Assembly (NCBI GenBank): GCA_045603785.1
Contig: JAZUMV010000001.1
Location: 9,343-73,342, forward strand
Direction of reading: 5' to 3'
Source: Candidatus Nanosyncoccaceae bacterium
GTDB lineage: Bacteria > Patescibacteriota > Saccharimonadia > Saccharimonadales > Saccharimonadaceae
Length of the DNA stretch: 64,000 bases
Shown: piece after piece, positions 13,266-45,649 of the stretch
Position numbering within the stretch: the stretch's first letter is position 1
How the letters are laid out: each line of letters opens with the position of its first letter
Made by a program: the position numbers and the translations under genes
Notes under the pieces: model-generated
Told to the model about the DNA's origin: nothing
What the model saw: the letters and a program-made list of their open reading frames with translations, nothing else
The model's database searches: none

Positions 13266-13910
13266 ATGAAGATTCTGGGTGGCTATAATCAGGAAAGGAT
13301 GCAGAATAAGCGTTCTCGCGCCGAGAAGTCGGCCGAGTCTGATTTTGCTGCCCAGAGTGTTCGCTCGAATAATTACCGTATTGGTCGTACGATGGCTGGC
13401 GATGCCAAGAAGGCGCTCGAAGCAAAACGACGCCGCGCGAATGACCAACGCAAACGCAAGATAAAGATGACGGCGGTCATTTCTGCAACCTGTTTAGTTG
13501 CCTTGATTGCTTTGTTCTCGGTAATTCATATTACGATGAAGCAGAAAGCTGAGCGCGAGTTGGCCGAGGCTGAGGCGGCGAAGGTTTTTGTGAAGGAACC
13601 GACCGTGCCTGTGGTTGATGAGAACGTTGGCAATAACATTAGCCAGCGTGTCAAAGATTTTGTTTACGATTTGGAGAATGATTTAGCGCAATATAATATC
13701 GGGATTGATCATGTTAGTTTACCGCTCCAAAAAGCGCGCGAGTTAAGGGTGTTTATCATTGGGCGAAGCGAGTATTACAAGATGTCGCTTGATCGCGGTA
13801 GTGCTGTTCAGGCAGAAGATTTAATGCGTATGATGAAGTATTTGGACGAGGAAGAGGTTGAACCTGAGTATGTCGACTTGCGAGTTGCCGGGAAGGCATA
13901 TTATAAGTAA
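13266..13910 (+). CDS. Bitopic membrane protein, possibly FtsQ/DivIB-like (C-terminal domain only)
   Basis: Basic N-terminus and one TM (VISATCLVALIALFSVIHI). The C-terminus ...LRVFIIGRSEYYKMSLDRG...EYVDLRVAGKAYYK resembles the FtsQ end motif (yvDlR). The match is weak and rests on memory only. Confidence 0.35.
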   Translation: MKILGGYNQERMQNKRSRAEKSAESDFAAQSVRSNNYRIGRTMAGDAKKALEAKRRRANDQRKRKIKMTAVISATCLVALIALFSVIHITMKQKAERELAEAEAAKVFVKEPTVPVVDENVGNNISQRVKDFVYDLENDLAQYNIGIDHVSLPLQKARELRVFIIGRSEYYKMSLDRGSAVQAEDLMRMMKYLDEEEVEPEYVDLRVAGKAYYK

Positions 13911-13975
13911 GTTTTATTGGCTTTCTCTTGGCTCCGCTTCGCTCTTGACGCTAAGAGAAAGCTAACAAAACTTAC
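13907..13975 (+). repeat. Hairpin H1: 23-bp stem closing the conserved 22-nt core GCTCCGCTTCGCTCTTGACGCT (13931-13952)
   Basis: 5' arm gtaagttttattggctttctctt pairs with 3' arm aagagaaagctaacaaaacttac (one A-C mismatch, one G-T pair). The stop codon of the preceding CDS lies in the 5' arm. Confidence 0.85.
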
Positions 13976-14073
13976 ATCAAAGATTCTAGTAGTTAGGGAA
14001 GGGCGTAGCGCCCTATTTTATTTGGTGAGATTTTCTTAAGAGCAAATATAGAGCAGTATGGTGCAGGTGGGAA

Positions 14074-14143
14074 GGTCCTAACTTCCTGAGTCTAACAGCG
14101 TCAAGAGCGAAGCGGAGCTGTTAGGCTCAGTGGAGTTAGGACC
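14074..14143 (-). repeat. Hairpin H2: interrupted ~22-bp stem closing AGCGTCAAGAGCGAAGCGGAGC (14097-14118), the exact reverse complement of the H1 core
   Basis: 5' arm ggtcctaacttcctgagtctaac pairs with 3' arm gttaggctcagtggagttaggacc. The core is 22/22 identical to H1 in inverted orientation. Confidence 0.85.
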
Positions 14144-14168
14144 TAACTCCCCCTATCTGCACTACTAT

Positions 14169-14190
14169 GTTCGGTTTTTGTTCGGTTTTT
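14169..14190 (+). repeat. Tandem 11-nt repeat GTTCGGTTTTT x2
   Basis: gttcggttttt occurs at 14169-14179 and 14180-14190, exact copies. Confidence 0.7.
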
Positions 14191-14243
14191 CCGAGAGCGA
14201 TTCGTAGCGAGAAGAGGGGGTAGTCTGATTTGGGCCGTCAAAA

Positions 14244-14941
14244 ACAGGGGTAAAATCGTTTTTGATAAGGGTAGGGCCAGGGTAGTGTGAAAAGCCGAAT
14301 TTTGGGGGTTTTCACGGCGTGAAAACTGTCTGAAATGTGGAAAAATATGTCATAATATAGGAATTTACAGGGGTCGTTGCGGTTAGGTATTGTGGATCTG
14401 TCAAATTAAACCACTCCCCCAAGGTGTTATTTCGGTAGGGGGCGCATAATTTTACAACATTTATGCGTATATTCGAGCAACTTATTATGGTCAAACAAGT
14501 ATATATACATAACGACATTAGTATTTTGATCTATTTATGTAGATAGAAGTGCCGTGTTTATGTGTATTTAACAGATGAGTTTTATTATTTAGATGATTGT
14601 CTATTCATCCTGGGTTCTAATACTGTATAGTCGTAAAATATACATTGTGCGACATTCAAAATATGGACAAAAGACGATTGCTCATACGTCTAAGTTGGCC
14701 TAGTTTTTGGCCGCCTCGCGGATATTTTCTCGTATTTGCCCTGTCCTTGCGCTTCTATGAGTTTCTACGCCCGATTTCGATTCCATATACTATTTATGTT
14801 TATATTCGCATTATGGCGCGATTTGTAAGCTTGATGTTTTTGCGGTTCAGTCAAGGATTTCCGCAAAAAAATAACAGAGGTAGAACAGGGGTGAGAATAG
14901 GGCGAAAATATCTGGATAGTTACAGGGGTAGAACAGGGGTG
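14244..14941 (+). repeat. Iteron-like direct repeats ACAGGGGT (5 exact copies plus 1 variant), all on the same strand
   Basis: Exact 8-mers at 14244, 14367, 14885, 14922 and 14933; variant ACAGAGGT at 14874. Two 20-mers ACAGRGGTAGAACAGGGGTG lie at 14874-14893 and 14922-14941. They flank an AT-rich stretch (~14440-14660, about 28-30% GC in two hand-counted 60-nt lines). Confidence 0.7.
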
Positions 14942-15083
14942 GCAAAGGGAAGATTTCTGCTCTTCCCCTTCCCTATGACCTCTGTTTGTAAGCTGTTAAT
15001 TATTTTTTCAAAAAAAATAAGCGTCGGTAAAACCGGCGCTCGAAATTAGAAAAGGAAATGATAGAAATAATAATGTAAAACTG

Positions 15084-16046
15084 TTATGAAGGTGTTGAAT
15101 TAGTCTTAGCGAATTTATACCAGGCCTCGGGTTTACAGTAAAAGATGTCGCGATCGAGATGCTCAACCGCAGACACATACTGATGTCCGAAGACCATATT
15201 CTCTTCCCACGCTACCACGTCAAAACTTTGTACATTGCCGTCGTTCTGTCCGTAGTTGGCAATCCATAAGCCGTAGGATTCGGCTCGGATGGTGGAGAGA
15301 GCTTCCTGGTCGCCAGAATTGTTTAGTAGCGACTGGTAGGTATAAAGTACCGGGCGAGTGCCGGTGACTTCCTTGAATCGCCTAAGAAATGCCAGAATCC
15401 ACTCGGAATCGAGTATCCTAGGACTCCCGTCGTCGATTTCGCAATCGAGGGCGTAAACGGCGTACCCAAGGTAATCCTTCGTATTCTCAATGCACCAGTC
15501 GGCGTATTCAACTGGGTCACGAGTTCGCCAAGAGATCTGGTTTGTATAGAAATACATGCCGATCAACTTACTTTTAGACTTGGCGTAGTCCATGTATTCG
15601 TAGAACATTGTGTCGATATCGCTTCCGCATGAAAACCGCATAATAACGGCGTCAGCTTCGTCGATATGATGCTTCCAGTCGTCTCCGGATTGGTAGACGC
15701 TGATATCAATGCCTTCGAGCATAGTCTTGCCTTCAAGCTGTTCAAGAGATTTCTGTCTATACTCGAGAAAAGCCTGGTCTTCGGGTGAAAGTATAGTTGT
15801 CGTTGTGTAAGTAGTAGAAGTCGTAGTAAGAGCAGTGGTCTCTGTGGTCTGGGTCGTAGAACTTGTAGCATGAGGTATGAAGGATAAATTCGTCAGCTGT
15901 GCTTCAGCTACAGTGGTGGCCGAGACAGTGGTCTCTTCGACGTAATCGCTCTTGCCGGAGTCATGGTCCACATCATAGATGAATACTATGATTGCAATAG
16001 CGACCAGGATAATGGTGGATAGCCTGTCATAGAATTTGTTTTCCAT
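15084..16046 (-). CDS. Membrane-anchored GH25-family muramidase (lysozyme) with a Thr-rich linker
   Basis: Start taken at MENKFYDRL, preceded by AGGGAGGAA; the upstream part of the track ORF overlaps the next gene. TM is STIILVAIAIIVFIY and the linker is TSSTTQTTETTALTTTSTTYTTTT. The catalytic domain begins GIDISVYQSGDDW and contains YALDCEIDDG, both GH25-like. Confidence 0.7.
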   Translation of the reverse strand: MENKFYDRLSTIILVAIAIIVFIYDVDHDSGKSDYVEETTVSATTVAEAQLTNLSFIPHATSSTTQTTETTALTTTSTTYTTTTILSPEDQAFLEYRQKSLEQLEGKTMLEGIDISVYQSGDDWKHHIDEADAVIMRFSCGSDIDTMFYEYMDYAKSKSKLIGMYFYTNQISWRTRDPVEYADWCIENTKDYLGYAVYALDCEIDDGSPRILDSEWILAFLRRFKEVTGTRPVLYTYQSLLNNSGDQEALSTIRAESYGLWIANYGQNDGNVQSFDVVAWEENMVFGHQYVSAVEHLDRDIFYCKPEAWYKFAKTNSTPS

Positions 16047-16161: not shown

Positions 16162-16761
16162 TTAGCCGTGTACCCAGAGAATAAGTAGGCCAATGACGAT
16201 TAGGAAGAAGAAGGCGTCGGTGCCGTAATTGACTTTGGCGTCAAAAATAAAGTAGCCAATAAGTAAGGCGGCCGAGAATATAACTTTGCCGAGGTGGTAT
16301 TTTTGGGCGAATTCTTTGAAGCTAAGATGATCGTGTGAAAAGAATTCTTTGATGCTCTTTTCACGGAGATCTTTAAGCTTCTTGTTCCCTATTGGCTTTT
16401 TATTGTAGTCGTCAAAAATTATAGCTTTGTGGTGATTGTGCAAATAGCTAATAAGAGTAAAAGCGAGGGCGCGTTCGCTATTCTTATTTTTTAAGAAAAC
16501 ATCGGCGCGGGCGTTGCATTTTTTAAGGGCAGCCTCGTATTTGGGGAAGTTCTCGAGAAGCTGCTTATATTCGCTGCGGTCCATTTTGCAGCTCAAAAAC
16601 TGATAGCTCTTCCCTGTTTTTTGCTCCCTAACAGAGATTTTGAGAGTGTCATCGGTGTAATCGCTATCGATAATTACATCTAGGCTGTTCTTTTGGAAGT
16701 AAGCGGCGCAGTCTTTTGGTTCGAAGTCGGAGCTGTGTTTCAGGTAGCAGTAAAAATCCAT
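16162..16761 (-). CDS. Hypothetical protein with a C-terminal double TM anchor
   Basis: 199-aa ORF, 20 nt downstream of the ATPase gene, with a GAGG SD. C-terminal hydrophobic segments VIFSAALLIGYFIF and FFFLIVIGLLILWV. No recognisable domain. Confidence 0.5.
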   Translation of the reverse strand: MDFYCYLKHSSDFEPKDCAAYFQKNSLDVIIDSDYTDDTLKISVREQKTGKSYQFLSCKMDRSEYKQLLENFPKYEAALKKCNARADVFLKNKNSERALAFTLISYLHNHHKAIIFDDYNKKPIGNKKLKDLREKSIKEFFSHDHLSFKEFAQKYHLGKVIFSAALLIGYFIFDAKVNYGTDAFFFLIVIGLLILWVHG

Positions 16762-16781: not shown

Positions 16782-19571
16782 CTATTTGGCGTTTTTGTTC
16801 TGATTGTTATTATGCTTGCGGTTATTGCGATTGTTGTTCCTGTTGCGCGAATTATTGCCTTGCTGAGGCTTCTTGTCTGGGGCGGAAGTAATAACTAGCT
16901 TTTCCTTAGTGTCGATTTCTGGCTCTTTTTCGCCTTTAATGTTTGGGCTTGCTATTGCGGCTTTCTCTGCAAAGAGCTTTCCTAGGTTGCGGAGGCCGTT
17001 GCCGGCATTTTCTTCTTCGCCCTGAGCAGCATTAGGAGAGATCTTTTGCTTGCGGAACTCTTGCTGCGGAGTTGGCTGGAAGGCGAAAACCGGCTTGGAC
17101 GGCTTTGGCGCGGCTTGCATCTGGGCACCGCGTTCGCCTGCGGCGCGACCAGAGTTGGATAGATCTTCCTTAAACTTATCTGCGGCACCGATGTTGTCCG
17201 CAATGAGCTTTTCGACTTCTTCCTTAGACTTAGCATAGGTATTACGAGAGTGTTCAATAATCTGTGGCGTAAGGTCGTTCGGTGGTTTTGGAATTGAAAG
17301 AGTGGTTGCGGAGAATGCATTAGCCTTTTCGCCGTTGATAATCATGGAGATGACAAAGTGGCGGTTATTGAGGTTGAGAAGGTCCTGCGCCTCAAAGATT
17401 GGCTCGAACTGTTTAGCGAGTACTGGGGCGTCGTCGGCGGAAACGCGGAAGCTGATAGTGGTACCAACGTTACCAAAGACTGCGTCACGAACGCTATCCG
17501 TCATCTGGCTCGTATACTGGTTCGCGACAGTTAGATTAAGACCGTATTTACGAGCCTCAGAAAGAATGACCGAGAAAGAATCGGTAGCGAAGTTTTGGAA
17601 CTCATCCACATAGAGATAGAATGGGCGACGATCTTCGACACGTTCGATATCTGAGCGGGACATAGCAGCGAGCTGAACCTTGGTAACCAAGAAGGAGCCG
17701 AGGAGGCCAGCGTTATCTTCGCCGATAAGACCTTTAGAAAGGTTAACGACGAGAATCTTGCCTTCGTCCATAATCTTGCGAATATTGAAGCTAGATTTTG
17801 GCTGGCCAATAATATTACGAACGATCGGGTTTGCCGTGAAGGCACCGACCTTGTTAAGAACAGGGGCGACAGATTCGGTAACCTGTTTATCGCTCCAGGA
17901 ACCGAACTCTTTCTTCCAGAACTGAAGAACTGTAACATCCGTACAATAAGTGAGGGTTTCCTTGCGGAAGTCTGCGTCGGTGAGCATGCGGGAAATATCC
18001 AAAAGTGTCGAATTTGGACGATCTAGCAATGCGAGCAAAGTGTAGCGCAAGATGTGCTCAAGACGAGGACCCCAAGAGTCGCCGAACATGCGCTTCAAAA
18101 CACCGATAACCTCAGAAGAAATATTTGGCTTACGGGCTGGATTATCTACCTCGAGTGGGTTAAAAGCCATCGGATATTGCGTATCGGCTGGGTTGAAATA
18201 GACAACATCCTTGATACGGGATTCGGGAATAAAGCGGAGGTTATCCATCGCGAGGTCGCCGTGTGGATCGATAATACAATAACCTTGGTTATGGAAAATA
18301 TCCGAGAGGCCGAAGAGGGTTAAAAGGCCTGACTTACCAGAACCGGTCTGACCGATGATATAGATATGGCGAGAGCGGTCACGGCGATACATGCCGAACT
18401 GGTTTTTGATGCCGCGGAAATCCGTAAGGCCGAAGGCAGAAATGTTCTCATCGATGGCTGGATTGCCGGTCATGAGCGGAAGCTTTGAGGGTGGCTCAGC
18501 AGTTTTACTCGAGGCCCAAACGATGTTTGGTGTTTCAACGCTGGCGTGAGGCAAGTGGTAGACGCTCGCGAGCTCAGAGACATTCAAGACGAAGCCATCA
18601 TCTGCAAACTGGCGTTCCTTGTATTTGTTGAGTTCGTTTTTATCGAAGGTAGCCTTGGTCATTTTAAAGCCGTTGAGAGCAGTAGAGTTGTACTGTTTGA
18701 AAGTACCAACGAGAGCCTGCATATTGAGCTTGGCGTCGATTTCTTTTTCGCCAACATAAACCAAGCGAATCTTGACCTCGTAGCCAAGTTTATCACTTTT
18801 CTCTTGCGCCTTCGAAACGCGGAGCTTATCGCGTTCGCTAAGCTCTTTCTTTACATCTTTATTGAGCTCCTCCGGCTGTTTCCACAGTGCTTCGCCGAGA
18901 CTCTTCAAAAAGTCCATGCCAAAGGATAGTTTCTTGCCGTCTTTGACGCTCTTAATCCAATCTTCGCTCTTTTTGCGCCAGTCGTCGGCGATTGGGCGAG
19001 TGAGGATCTGAATCCACATCTCTTCTCCTCCAGTAGGATTAAGCTTGGCGAGAGTTGCGGTAACACCTGCGAGCGGATCAACCTCGAAGCTGTCGAAGGT
19101 CTTAATTGGCAAGGCTTGGTCGTCAGTTAAGACAATTTCGGTGCTGTAATTGACTGGATATTTTTCGCGGCGATCGACATAGTCTTCGTTCATACGATAG
19201 ATCTGCACGCTTGGATACTGCGCATAGATCTGGCCTTCAACAAAGGACTGGAAGATTTTTGGAACCCAAACGAAGAAGCGGATCTGATTGCCAGTTGATG
19301 CAATTTCGAAGGAGAGGTGCTCCTGAACGCCGCCGGTGTTTTTAAGTTCGTTGGCATCACGCAAAATACCATGTAGGGACATGAACATTTGCTCAGCACT
19401 AAGTTCGTTTTTGTCGTTGTCTTTCGGAATTTCAAGCATCAAAAGTACGCTATCGACATTAAGAACTTTCATGCGATTGAGTTTGCGATAATTGCGTACG
19501 GTTAGGACCGCCAAAAGAGTCACGATTGGAATCCAAACGATTGGCTTAAAAAGAAAGGACAAAAGATTCAT
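16782..19571 (-). CDS. TraD/VirD4/TraG-like (type IV coupling protein family) P-loop ATPase with an N-terminal membrane anchor and a basic Asn-rich tail
   Basis: N-terminal TM is IVWIPIVTLLAVLTV. Walker A is IIGQTGSGKSG and Walker B is FYLYVDEFQNF, followed by ARKYGLNLTVANQY. The C-terminus is NNSRNRNNNRNNRKHNNNQNKNAK. Confidence 0.7.
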   Translation of the reverse strand: MNLLSFLFKPIVWIPIVTLLAVLTVRNYRKLNRMKVLNVDSVLLMLEIPKDNDKNELSAEQMFMSLHGILRDANELKNTGGVQEHLSFEIASTGNQIRFFVWVPKIFQSFVEGQIYAQYPSVQIYRMNEDYVDRREKYPVNYSTEIVLTDDQALPIKTFDSFEVDPLAGVTATLAKLNPTGGEEMWIQILTRPIADDWRKKSEDWIKSVKDGKKLSFGMDFLKSLGEALWKQPEELNKDVKKELSERDKLRVSKAQEKSDKLGYEVKIRLVYVGEKEIDAKLNMQALVGTFKQYNSTALNGFKMTKATFDKNELNKYKERQFADDGFVLNVSELASVYHLPHASVETPNIVWASSKTAEPPSKLPLMTGNPAIDENISAFGLTDFRGIKNQFGMYRRDRSRHIYIIGQTGSGKSGLLTLFGLSDIFHNQGYCIIDPHGDLAMDNLRFIPESRIKDVVYFNPADTQYPMAFNPLEVDNPARKPNISSEVIGVLKRMFGDSWGPRLEHILRYTLLALLDRPNSTLLDISRMLTDADFRKETLTYCTDVTVLQFWKKEFGSWSDKQVTESVAPVLNKVGAFTANPIVRNIIGQPKSSFNIRKIMDEGKILVVNLSKGLIGEDNAGLLGSFLVTKVQLAAMSRSDIERVEDRRPFYLYVDEFQNFATDSFSVILSEARKYGLNLTVANQYTSQMTDSVRDAVFGNVGTTISFRVSADDAPVLAKQFEPIFEAQDLLNLNNRHFVISMIINGEKANAFSATTLSIPKPPNDLTPQIIEHSRNTYAKSKEEVEKLIADNIGAADKFKEDLSNSGRAAGERGAQMQAAPKPSKPVFAFQPTPQQEFRKQKISPNAAQGEEENAGNGLRNLGKLFAEKAAIASPNIKGEKEPEIDTKEKLVITSAPDKKPQQGNNSRNRNNNRNNRKHNNNQNKNAK

Positions 19572-31269: not shown

Positions 31270-31398
31270 CACTTTTTGCAACTTTTTTCCAAAAATCAAG
31301 CGATTTTGGCGATTTTTCCTATCTGATGGCTGTTTGCTAACAGAGGTCAAAGTGCTTATTGTTATTTTTCGAAAATATTGTATAAAATTGGCGAATTT

Positions 31399-36934: not shown

Positions 36935-37366
36935 TTAGTGTTTCTTTATGATTTTTCTACGTTTAATAAAGCAGAAGATAGTAATAAAAATGCAGATACC
37001 TGTAATTGCGCCAAGACTATCTATGACAACATCAGTAAAGTTGCCATCTCGGCCAAAAATGAAGTTCTGGTGATATTCGTCTATGAGTGCATAAACGACA
37101 GCAGGCAGTAGTGACAGTGCTGCTGTTACGATAGTTGGAAACTTCTTATTGATGCTTCTGAAGAAGTTTGCCCAAGAAAGACCTAACAAGGCATAGATAG
37201 TAAAGTGAGCAAGCTTGCGTACGACATGATTTGTGAGGCCGAGTTTTTCTGCTAGAGGGATTGATATGCCATCCGATTCAAAGCTGTTTTGCGCGGAAAA
37301 ATTCCAGATGATAATCATGATAATTATTGGGAAAATGATCTGCCAGTAGCGTTTTATGTATTTCAT
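36935..37366 (-). CDS. VanZ-like membrane protein
   Basis: Start at MKYIKRYW; the longer track ORF runs through the tRNA gene. VRKLAHFTIYALLG and IDEYHQNFIFGR are VanZ-like blocks. Four TM segments. Confidence 0.65.
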   Translation of the reverse strand: MKYIKRYWQIIFPIIIMIIIWNFSAQNSFESDGISIPLAEKLGLTNHVVRKLAHFTIYALLGLSWANFFRSINKKFPTIVTAALSLLPAVVYALIDEYHQNFIFGRDGNFTDVVIDSLGAITGICIFITIFCFIKRRKIIKKH

Positions 37367-37453
37367 CTCTACTATTCTAGACCATTGTTTGAGTAGAGGC
37401 AAAGCCCATGCTTTACAGATAATCTGTTTTCTGTTAAACTTAAGGACATAAGT

Positions 37454-37530
37454 GGTCCCGTCGTCTAGTGGTCCAGGACGTCTGGTTCTCATCCAGAAAA
37501 TCAAGGGTTCGACTCCCTTCGGGATCACCA
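37454..37530 (+). tRNA. tRNA-Glu (anticodon CUC), CCA encoded
   Basis: Hand-folded cloverleaf: acceptor ggtcccg/cgggatc, D arm gtc-tagtggtccag-gac, anticodon arm tctgg-ttCTCat-ccaga, T arm aaggg-ttcgact-ccctt, discriminator A, then cca. Confidence 0.9.
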
Positions 37531-37593
37531 TTTTGAAGTTAAAATAGCCCGGTTGGGCATTTTTCTTGCTTGCTCATTGTTTATCTCCCTTCT

Positions 37594-45409: not shown

Positions 45410-45488
45410 CTCGTTAGCTGTTTTAGTCTCACTCCTTAGCTCCACTTCGTTCTTGACGCTAAGGAGTAAGACTAAAACGGCTAACGAG
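45410..45488 (+). repeat. Hairpin H3: 29-bp stem closing core GCTCCACTTCGTTCTTGACGCT (45439-45460)
   Basis: 5' arm ctcgttagctgttttagtctcactcctta pairs with 3' arm taaggagtaagactaaaacggctaacgag (one G-T pair, one C-A mismatch). Confidence 0.85.
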
Positions 45489-45570: not shown

Positions 45571-45649
45571 GCTAATTGCAACTTGACTTTATCTCTCAGC
45601 GTCAAGAACGTAGTGGAGCTGAGAGATAAAGCTCAAGCTTGCAATTAGC
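45571..45649 (-). repeat. Hairpin H4: interrupted ~21-bp stem closing AGCGTCAAGAACGTAGTGGAGC (45598-45619), the inverted core (21/22 versus H3)
   Basis: 5' arm gctaattgcaacttgactttatctctc pairs with 3' arm gagagataaagctcaagcttgcaattagc (11 bp, internal loop, 10 bp). Confidence 0.85.

Follow-up and report, generated by a model that had tools for sequence, protein, structure and literature searches.

Xer recombination sites such as those of XerCD-dif, XerS-difSL, XerH-difH and archaeal XerA-dif are 28–30 bp long and consist of inverted arms around a 6-bp centre; they occur once per chromosome, are conserved across phylum-level groups and are used by integrase-less phages. The canonical FtsK-dependent dif lies at the skew-defined terminus. 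In cer and psi, PepA together with ArgR or ArcA binds an accessory sequence of about 180 bp that accompanies the Xer core, while integrative mobile elements exploiting Xer (IMEX), among them CTX-phi, VGJ-phi and TLC-phi of Vibrio and the dif-integrating inoviruses, make use of the host Xer reaction at dif. To our knowledge, the chromosome-maintenance sites of the candidate phyla radiation (CPR; Patescibacteria), which holds a large share of bacterial diversity, are essentially uncharted. Here we analyzed a gene-free gap of 1173 nt (positions 13911–15083) in a 64-kb stretch of chromosomal DNA from a Saccharibacterium, a member of this group. The whole stretch is referred to as the window, and all coordinates are window positions. 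The gap contains a 24-bp palindromic core (14630–14653), relative to which all offsets are given, and short direct repeats on both sides of it. On balance, the gap is probably a cis-acting recombination locus composed of an Xer/dif-type core and lineage-specific accessory repeat arms. By its sequence characteristics, the core looks like a previously undescribed chromosome-resolution (dif-type) site of the ultrasmall CPR bacteria, and no paper reporting the core sequence in a relevant context was found.

The core, which reads GTCGTAAAA-TATACA-TTGTGCGAC on the + strand and is proposed as the Xer/dif-type site, is an imperfect palindrome with a 9-6-9 layout. A single copy is present in the window when up to six mismatches are allowed, and likewise one core was found per 21-kb locus of the relatives. 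In 22 relatives anchored on phosphoglycerate kinase (PGK; 63–77% identity), the arms of the core were invariant and only the 6-nt centre differed, being TATACA, TATGCA, TCTGTA, TCTATA or GGTACA. A metagenome scan in which the arms were fixed and the 6-bp centre was left free returned at least 120 stretches from many different metagenomes with one core each, including contigs of 609, 775 and 956 kb. Outside the Saccharibacteria-like set of 46 sequences (class I), the flanks of the core share nothing, and the element is found in many CPR lineages. What all sequences have in common is a site of 30 bp, aatGTCGTAAAA-N6-TTGTGCGACATT, and the wider consensus has a 12-6-12 layout, AATGTCGTAAAA-N6-TTGTGCGACATT. 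This fits the Xer/dif architecture of 28–30 bp with two inverted arms of ~11 bp and a centre of 6–8 bp. As in the known systems, the element occurs once (here per contig) and is conserved across a phylum-level group, whereas the sequence of the arms is new. Genes converge on the core in ~70% of the loci.

The core is located at the right end of an AT-rich block (14440–14660), for which an earlier sequence-only reading had given a GC content of ~28–30%; the measured value is 29.9%, compared with 46.3% window-wide. That reading had interpreted the block as an unwinding region. However, its right end holds the invariant 24-bp palindrome of the recombination type, and from its pattern of conservation the core behaves as a target of site-specific recombination and not as a generic unwinding element. 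In the 775-kb metagenome contig (L119), two additional core-like sites are present between -99 and -30 from the main core, one of them direct (GTCGTAAAA..CTGTGCGAC) and one inverted with a longer spacer (GTCGCACAG..TTTTACAAC). Additional half-sites around the core were considered as a further feature and rejected, as their ~2-fold enrichment at one mismatch was too noisy; clear extra copies were seen in L119.

A linkage between the core and a recombinase was observed in both directions. In seven metagenome loci selected by the motif, a XerC/D-type gene (Pfam Phage_integrase and SAM) was found ~1 kb from the core. Conversely, four Patescibacteria proteins annotated as XerD were selected on the basis of the protein only, and their contigs were fetched. 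All of the resulting loci (6/6, from Microgenomates) carried a core-like site 1.0–1.8 kb upstream of xer, and in one example, AACGTCGCAAAA-GGTTTA-TTGTGCGACGTT, the outer bases are changed symmetrically in both arms. The core-linked recombinases form a highly conserved family with ~60–65% identity among the best 120 matches, the source names being XerD or tyrosine recombinase and Patescibacteria or Shapirobacteria. The recombinase gene is thus adjacent to the site in some CPR lineages, as is the case for xerS, xerH and xerA, and a protein of the Xer family would be the enzyme acting on the core.

The core was also found in 60 contigs of the IMG/VR database. Seventeen of these, all of low GC content, contain host murG, an FtsQ-like gene and the core, followed by filamentous-phage genes, and the murG–FtsQ-like synteny is that of the window. 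The genes beyond the core encode a Zot-type assembly ATPase, a G2P-type rolling-circle initiator and small proteins, and no tyrosine recombinase was detected in the 17 contigs by an Xer-based hidden Markov model search. In contigs that are long enough, a second site is present 5.1–5.9 kb downstream, in which the left arm is degenerate while the centre and the right arm are identical. Both junctions share the same centre, which is GATATA in six contigs, GGTATA in L222 and CGGACA in L202. Since further prophage sequence follows the second site, the prophages appear to be arranged in tandem. The inovirus-like prophages (contigs L203, L208, L210, L212, L217, L224, L225, L233–L235, L249, L251, L254, L256, L202, L215, L222 and L230) measure ~5.3 kb, reside in low-GC CPR-like hosts and often form tandem arrays of different phages.

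These elements have no recombinase of their own, and of the two host-site copies at their ends one is full and the other defective, an arrangement characteristic of IMEX. Like the known IMEX, they are integrase-less inoviruses with Zot and rolling-circle Rep genes that are inserted between full and half-degenerate sites of identical centre and form tandem arrays; they differ from them in their CPR hosts and in the target sequence, and in that tailed-phage contigs carry the site as well. In addition, the homology between the class I locus L178 and its relative L145 ends exactly at the core. Taken together, the prophage junctions with a shared centre and the break in L178 suggest, by comparison of sequences, that strand exchange occurs at the core, and it is the sharing of the centre that points to strand exchange rather than initiation.

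The tailed-phage contigs have a GC content of 43–48% and carry terminase, portal and helicase genes. In these contigs the motif ACAGRGGT has fixed positions, about -24 and/or +32 relative to the start of the core. If it is present on both flanks, the two copies have a common strand, but this strand is not fixed with respect to the core. The density of ACAGRGGT between -80 and +100 bp around the core is 23 times that in the rest of the tailed-phage loci, and only one integrase was found among 52 mid-size proteins encoded there. No sequence match in PDB was obtained for the proteins beside the core in these contigs, and the 18-mer ACAGGGGTAGAAYAGGGG gave a single, unrelated match in the viral contigs, in a sequence without the core. 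The contigs, which include L209, L237, L241, L243, L248, L250, L255 and L259, probably belong to Saccharibacteria phages, and the shared site could serve to assign phages to their hosts. In the Saccharibacterial chromosomes, ACAGRGGT occurs at about -230 to -460 and +200 to +610 from the core. The motif is therefore tied to the core in chromosomes and in phage DNA alike, in the latter as an immediate neighbour, which supports a common function in a recombination complex. Short repeats that flank a core at fixed offsets, as at -24 and +32 in the phage contigs, are also known from attP sites of the lambda type; in contrast to lambda attP, no integrase is adjacent and the chromosomal copy carries arms too.

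The presence of the core in 60 viral contigs could also mean that it is a phage-derived cos or pac packaging signal, or the decayed remnant of an old integration without a function for the host. In several tailed-phage contigs the core indeed adjoins small or large terminase genes and is flanked by ACAGRGGT, whereas in others it is located between divergent early genes. However, the core is also present at the host junction of the inoviruses, phages that lack a terminase, and contig ends fall near the core but not within it. Moreover, the chromosomal module is syntenic and strongly constrained across species that share only 63–77% PGK identity, and the core extends across CPR phyla. We therefore regard an origin as a packaging signal or remnant as unlikely.

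In the Saccharibacteria, the core is embedded in a non-coding module of ~1 kb that is found in at least 23 related genomes or contigs. In 23 related loci the repeats keep their place and strand, and the module is syntenic in the relatives, so that the lack of conservation named beforehand as a refuting outcome was not observed. The module consists of a GTTCGG tandem, one or two copies of ACAGGGG, the 24-bp palindrome and another two to five copies of ACAGGGG, with spacings in multiples of ~11 bp. The PGK-anchored relatives show the same ~1-kb gap after the gene for a 214-aa protein and carry the ACAGGGGT copies on the same strand, while the genes beyond the gap vary. The alignment revealed near-invariant blocks in the left part (TGTTCGGTTTTTGTTCGGT, the inverted repeat CGTGAAA..TTTCACG, TATGTTATAATATGTGATTTTACAGGGGT and GTCAAAT), in the centre (GACGATTG..TATAGTCGTAAAATATACATTGTGCGACATT..AAAAGACGATTG..CGTC) and in the 3' part, where ACAGGGGTAGAAYAGGGG forms a cluster and several species have a second, right-end GTTCGG tandem.

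For a census of the repeats, loci with at least 700 nt on each side of the core were used and ACAGRGG was counted. At least one left and at least two right copies were present in 23 unique loci, with 119 copies on the + strand and 10 on the - strand. The left GTTCGG tandem was found in all of these full-module loci (23/23), at -385 to -562 from the core, and a second tandem at about +335 to +630 in seven of the 23. Successive right-hand copies are most often spaced by 11–12 bp (21 times) or 21–24 bp (22 times), but spacings of 32–33, 43–48 and 56–57 bp also occur. Repeat spacing in multiples of the helical turn is a signature of proteins bound to one face of the DNA. The conserved repeats, phased at ~11 bp, thus bear out the proposal of the sequence-only reading that the gap is a cis-acting DNA module of the protein-binding type and not a gene, so far as this can be judged from sequence.

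In the window itself, the gap is the largest one, the median being 74 nt. The sequence-only reading had reported ~940 nt without a credible open reading frame (ORF); the lack of a conserved ORF was confirmed, while the true gap proved longer. Its account of the repeats was confirmed. Five copies of ACAGGGGT are present in the entire window, all of them in the gap and on the + strand (starting at 14244, 14367, 14885, 14922 and 14933), and such clustering by chance is implausible, as claimed, given that dinucleotide-preserving shuffles yielded a mean of 0.46 and a maximum of three copies. The variant ACAGAGGT is located at 14874, and its one other copy in the window, at 31340, is unrelated. The two 20-mers ACAGRGGTAGAACAGGGGTG (14874–14893 and 14922–14941) are 48 nt apart and have no further match in the window at up to three mismatches. 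The GTTCGGTTTTT tandem of two units (14169–14190) was verified too, and there is no other such tandem in the window.

The tandem, on the + strand and with an 11-bp period, forms the left boundary of the module, and its TGTTCGGTTTTTGTTCGGT is invariant in the relatives. It is followed in the left arm by the first ACAGGGGT copy (14244–14251, + strand, -386 from the core) and by an inverted repeat, GTGAAAAGCC..GGGTTTTCAC, and then CGGCGTGAAAAC (14287–14326), of which the CGTGAAA..TTTCACG pair is kept in the alignment of the relatives. An extended -10-like promoter element on the + strand, TGTCATAAT (14348–14356; TGTTATAAT in relatives), faces the core, and its TATGTTATAATATGTGATTTTACAGGGGT is nearly invariant in 22 loci. 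The second ACAGGGGT copy (14367–14374, + strand, -263) is located ~10 nt past this element. A + strand hairpin, CTCCCCC..GGGGG(CG), was read by eye at 14414–14444. Closer to the core, which is itself on the + strand, two direct repeats of CGATTGT are found on the same strand: GATGATTGT on the left (14592–14600, -38; class I consensus GaTTgtttaTatat) and GACGATTG on the right (14673–14680, +43), the latter inside the conserved AAAAGACGATTG..CGTC block. The right arm comprises two repeat pairs on the + strand, ACAGAGGTAGAACAGGGGTG (14874–14893), with two 8-mers at an 11-bp period, and ACAGGGGTAGAACAGGGGTG (14922–14941). The module is closed by the + strand hairpin GGCAAAGGGAAGA..TCTTCCCCTTCCC (14941–14973), at whose position the relatives have a hairpin and CTTCCCT.

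Only two sizeable ORFs are present in the gap, at 14645–15049 (+ strand, 134 aa) and 14312–14518 (- strand), and neither has a Pfam match. In L001, ATA takes the place of the in-frame ATG (14663) of the 134-aa ORF, and the relatives have no gap ORF in common as regards position and strand, which argues against a gene or a degraded coding sequence; the latter had been named beforehand as an outcome that would speak against a cis-acting site. A non-coding RNA was also considered, either as a transcript of ~600 nt or as a short RNA from the promoter-like element at 14348–14356, with the palindrome acting as an RNA hairpin. An almost invariant extended -10-like element does precede ACAGGGGT, and ~100 nt past it there is a hairpin whose stem differs by subclade (CCCCCG/CGGGGG, CACTTCC/GGAAGTG). 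Furthermore, the hairpin of the palindrome is better on the + strand owing to a U-G pair; however, this pair becomes C-A in the variant L264. No Rfam match was obtained at the gathering score or at E ≤ 10, and none in 20 diverse loci. RNAalifold with 38 class I sequences predicted only the invariant palindrome helix, with a covariation term of 0, and no consensus structure in the promoter-proximal region. The GACG/CGTC pair of the central block does not covary. The core also serves as a DNA junction for prophages. Overall, it is rather unlikely that RNA is the main product of the locus. A short transcript that starts at the promoter-like element and ends at the hairpin at 14414–14444 is possible and would be compatible with a recombination locus.

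Saccharibacteria are reported to replicate bidirectionally and to show a normal skew (PMC6031116). The GC skew was positive across the whole window, i.e., from -14.6 to +49 kb relative to the site, and the third-codon-position skew, calculated for the + strand, was positive for genes of both strands over the 64 kb. All class I relatives showed the same sign on both sides of the site (+/+). A change from + to - was observed in five low-GC loci and near the Microgenomates sites, where it is confounded with gene orientation. Because the skew keeps its sign in the window and in the class I relatives, the Saccharibacterial site is neither an origin nor a skew-defined terminus, and the skew extremum that the sequence-only reading had suggested looking for is not present there. 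The third-codon-position skew was ~0.3–0.6 for the minus-strand genes and lower but mostly positive for the plus-strand genes. Right of 15 kb, ~70% of the genes are on the minus strand, which is the apparent lagging strand.

These results bear on the proposal of the sequence-only reading that the gap is an iteron-type origin or a partition (centromere) site, with a Rep- or ParB-like protein on the repeats and melting of the AT-rich block. The direct repeats phased at ~11 bp, the central AT-rich block with 29.9% GC and the single copy of the element would all suit such a site, but the constant sign of the skew over the 64 kb and in the class I relatives would not. No rep, par or dnaA gene was found anywhere in the window, in line with the earlier statement that no rep or par gene is adjacent, and the whole gap had no blastn match to plasmid or phage DNA. 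The only DnaA box seen by eye was a weak, non-conserved TGTGGATCT. Conservation of the AT-rich stretch is for the most part poor, except for the palindrome at its right end, and the prophage junctions with their shared centre point to strand exchange and not to initiation. An origin or partition function therefore appears highly improbable. The cyanobacterial motif HIP1 was also tried and was not enriched.

The gap is located between convergent genes, one for an FtsQ-like membrane protein that ends at 13910 and one on the - strand for a glycoside hydrolase of family 25 (GH25) that ends at 15084. Upstream on the + strand, the order is mraW, ftsI, mraY, ftsW, murG, tRNA-Glu, pyk, pgk and the gene for the 214-aa membrane protein. 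Downstream on the - strand, the GH25 hydrolase is followed by a 199-aa protein and a VirD4-like coupling ATPase, and the remaining genes of the window are housekeeping genes. The closest genomes are metagenome-assembled genomes of Saccharibacteria/Nanosyncoccaceae from the ruminant gut, with a PGK identity of at most 77%. The FtsQ-like neighbour (13266–13910) was considered as a relaxase or Rep protein and rejected, since it is a membrane protein that follows ftsW-murG and has no DNA-processing signature.

The VirD4-like ATPase (929 aa) and its conserved partner of ~200 aa are encoded near the module at 16782–19571 and 16162–16761, respectively, on the - strand; the partner has no family match. 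The pair also follows the core in distant Saccharibacteria-like contigs, e.g., L156 and L173. Short repeats that load a translocase are known as TRS for TraB of Streptomyces and as FtsK orienting polar sequences (KOPS) for FtsK. The gap could accordingly be an oriT- or clt-like transfer site for the neighbouring ATPase, with the 8-bp repeats loading the translocase. Consistent with this, a gene of the type IV coupling protein (T4CP) type (~900–1180 aa) ends beside the module in 30 loci, and the repeats are 8 bp long, G-rich and phased. Against it, many lineages have the core beside unrelated genes and without a T4CP next to it, phage contigs with the core and ACAGRGGT lack a T4CP, and the repeats do not change orientation from one side of the core to the other. 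Neither a relaxase nor a virB4 gene was found in the window. In CPR bacteria, most type IV secretion clusters lack relaxases, and the genes for T4CPs tend to lie far from virB4 (bioRxiv 10.1101/2025.01.22.634366), which also speaks against a transfer site here. Overall, such a site is very unlikely. Iterons, KOPS and TRS (clt) resemble the locus in their short, helically phased direct repeats or 8-bp G-rich motifs, and they differ from it as it has no Rep gene, no skew switch, repeats of one orientation on both sides and no consistent link to a translocase outside the Saccharibacteria.

The first ~250 nt of the gap are occupied by a hairpin-pair element (13898–14150; fold z-score -7.8) that is specific to the window and absent from all relatives. 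The 22-nt loops of its two long hairpins, GCTCCGCTTCGCTCTTGACGCT, are exact reverse complements (13931–13952 on the + strand and 14097–14118 on the - strand). A second pair of such loops, with two to three mismatches and in the same inverted layout, is present at 45439–45460 and 45598–45619. Between the two loci only the loops are conserved, and the differing stems still pair. The element may be a small mobile element similar to repetitive extragenic palindromic (REP) sequences or an RNA motif. Elsewhere in the window, the start of a 198-aa ORF on the - strand (36935–37531) is probably over-extended, as tRNA-Glu(CTC) on the + strand (37454–37530) overlaps its 5' end.

If the locus is a recombination site, two Xer-family protomers would occupy the invariant arms, strand exchange would take place across the 6-bp centre, and integrase-less mobile elements would insert at the core through the same host reaction. 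The host function would most likely be the resolution of chromosome dimers. The repeats would be accessory sites: accessory, architectural or activating proteins would recognize the ACAGGGGT arrays, the GTTCGG tandems and the two CGATTGT repeats (-38 and +43) and could shape the synapse and set the timing and the direction of recombination, comparable to cer and psi or to the arms of attP. In the lineage of the window, the promoter facing the core would be part of this scaffold. Like cer and psi, the locus has accessory DNA beside its core, which could give recombination a direction independently of FtsK, and such DNA in place of FtsK would explain the position away from the terminus; the absence of a skew switch at the site makes control by accessory arms attractive. 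It differs from cer and psi in having arms on both sides over about ±450 bp, with phased ACAGGGGT 8-mers and GTTCGG tandems, and in being a chromosomal site; compared with the known Xer/dif systems, it is set apart by the missing skew switch and by the ~1 kb of conserved repeat arms around it. A more specific version holds that the site, at which Saccharibacteria would resolve or rearrange their chromosome, has moved off the terminus, that a two-sided scaffold of arrays, tandems and promoter gives directionality instead of FtsK, and that the sites of the factor involved have been copied by the phages of these bacteria; this remains a tentative and rather doubtful proposal.

Several observations weigh against a recombination locus of this kind. 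No xer gene was found in the window, and the site is off the skew-defined terminus. Only one half of the core, GTCGCACAA-TGTATA, resembles what we take to be the corresponding half of E. coli dif, GCGCATAA-TGTATA, and the asymmetry of the arms is at inner positions, whereas in XerCD dif it is presumably at outer ones. Unlike KOPS, the ACAGGGGT copies to the left and right of the core all point in one direction, and the proteins that bind ACAGGGGT and GTTCGG are putative. Some of the module may be transcribed, to judge from the conserved promoter-like element, and where the core adjoins terminase genes in tailed-phage contigs, a role in packaging is possible. Finally, independence of the site from FtsK can only be tentative, since an annotated ftsK is present in TM7x (PMC10768705).

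What is new here is most likely the CPR core of the Xer/dif kind, its 1-kb two-sided repeat scaffold and its non-terminal position. A single-copy recombination site offers a marker for closing and checking CPR genomes. It also explains where integrase-less filamentous phages insert, and sharing of the site links phage contigs to CPR hosts. In tractable Saccharibacteria, the site is a possible tool for marker excision ("Xer-cise") or site-specific integration. A testable question follows from the repeat arms and from the lack of a skew switch at the site, namely how Xer is controlled without the usual logic of terminus and FtsK. If the proposed reading is true, the locus would represent a chromosomal form of Xer control that is similar to cer and psi but new in its architecture, and that is common to host and virus.

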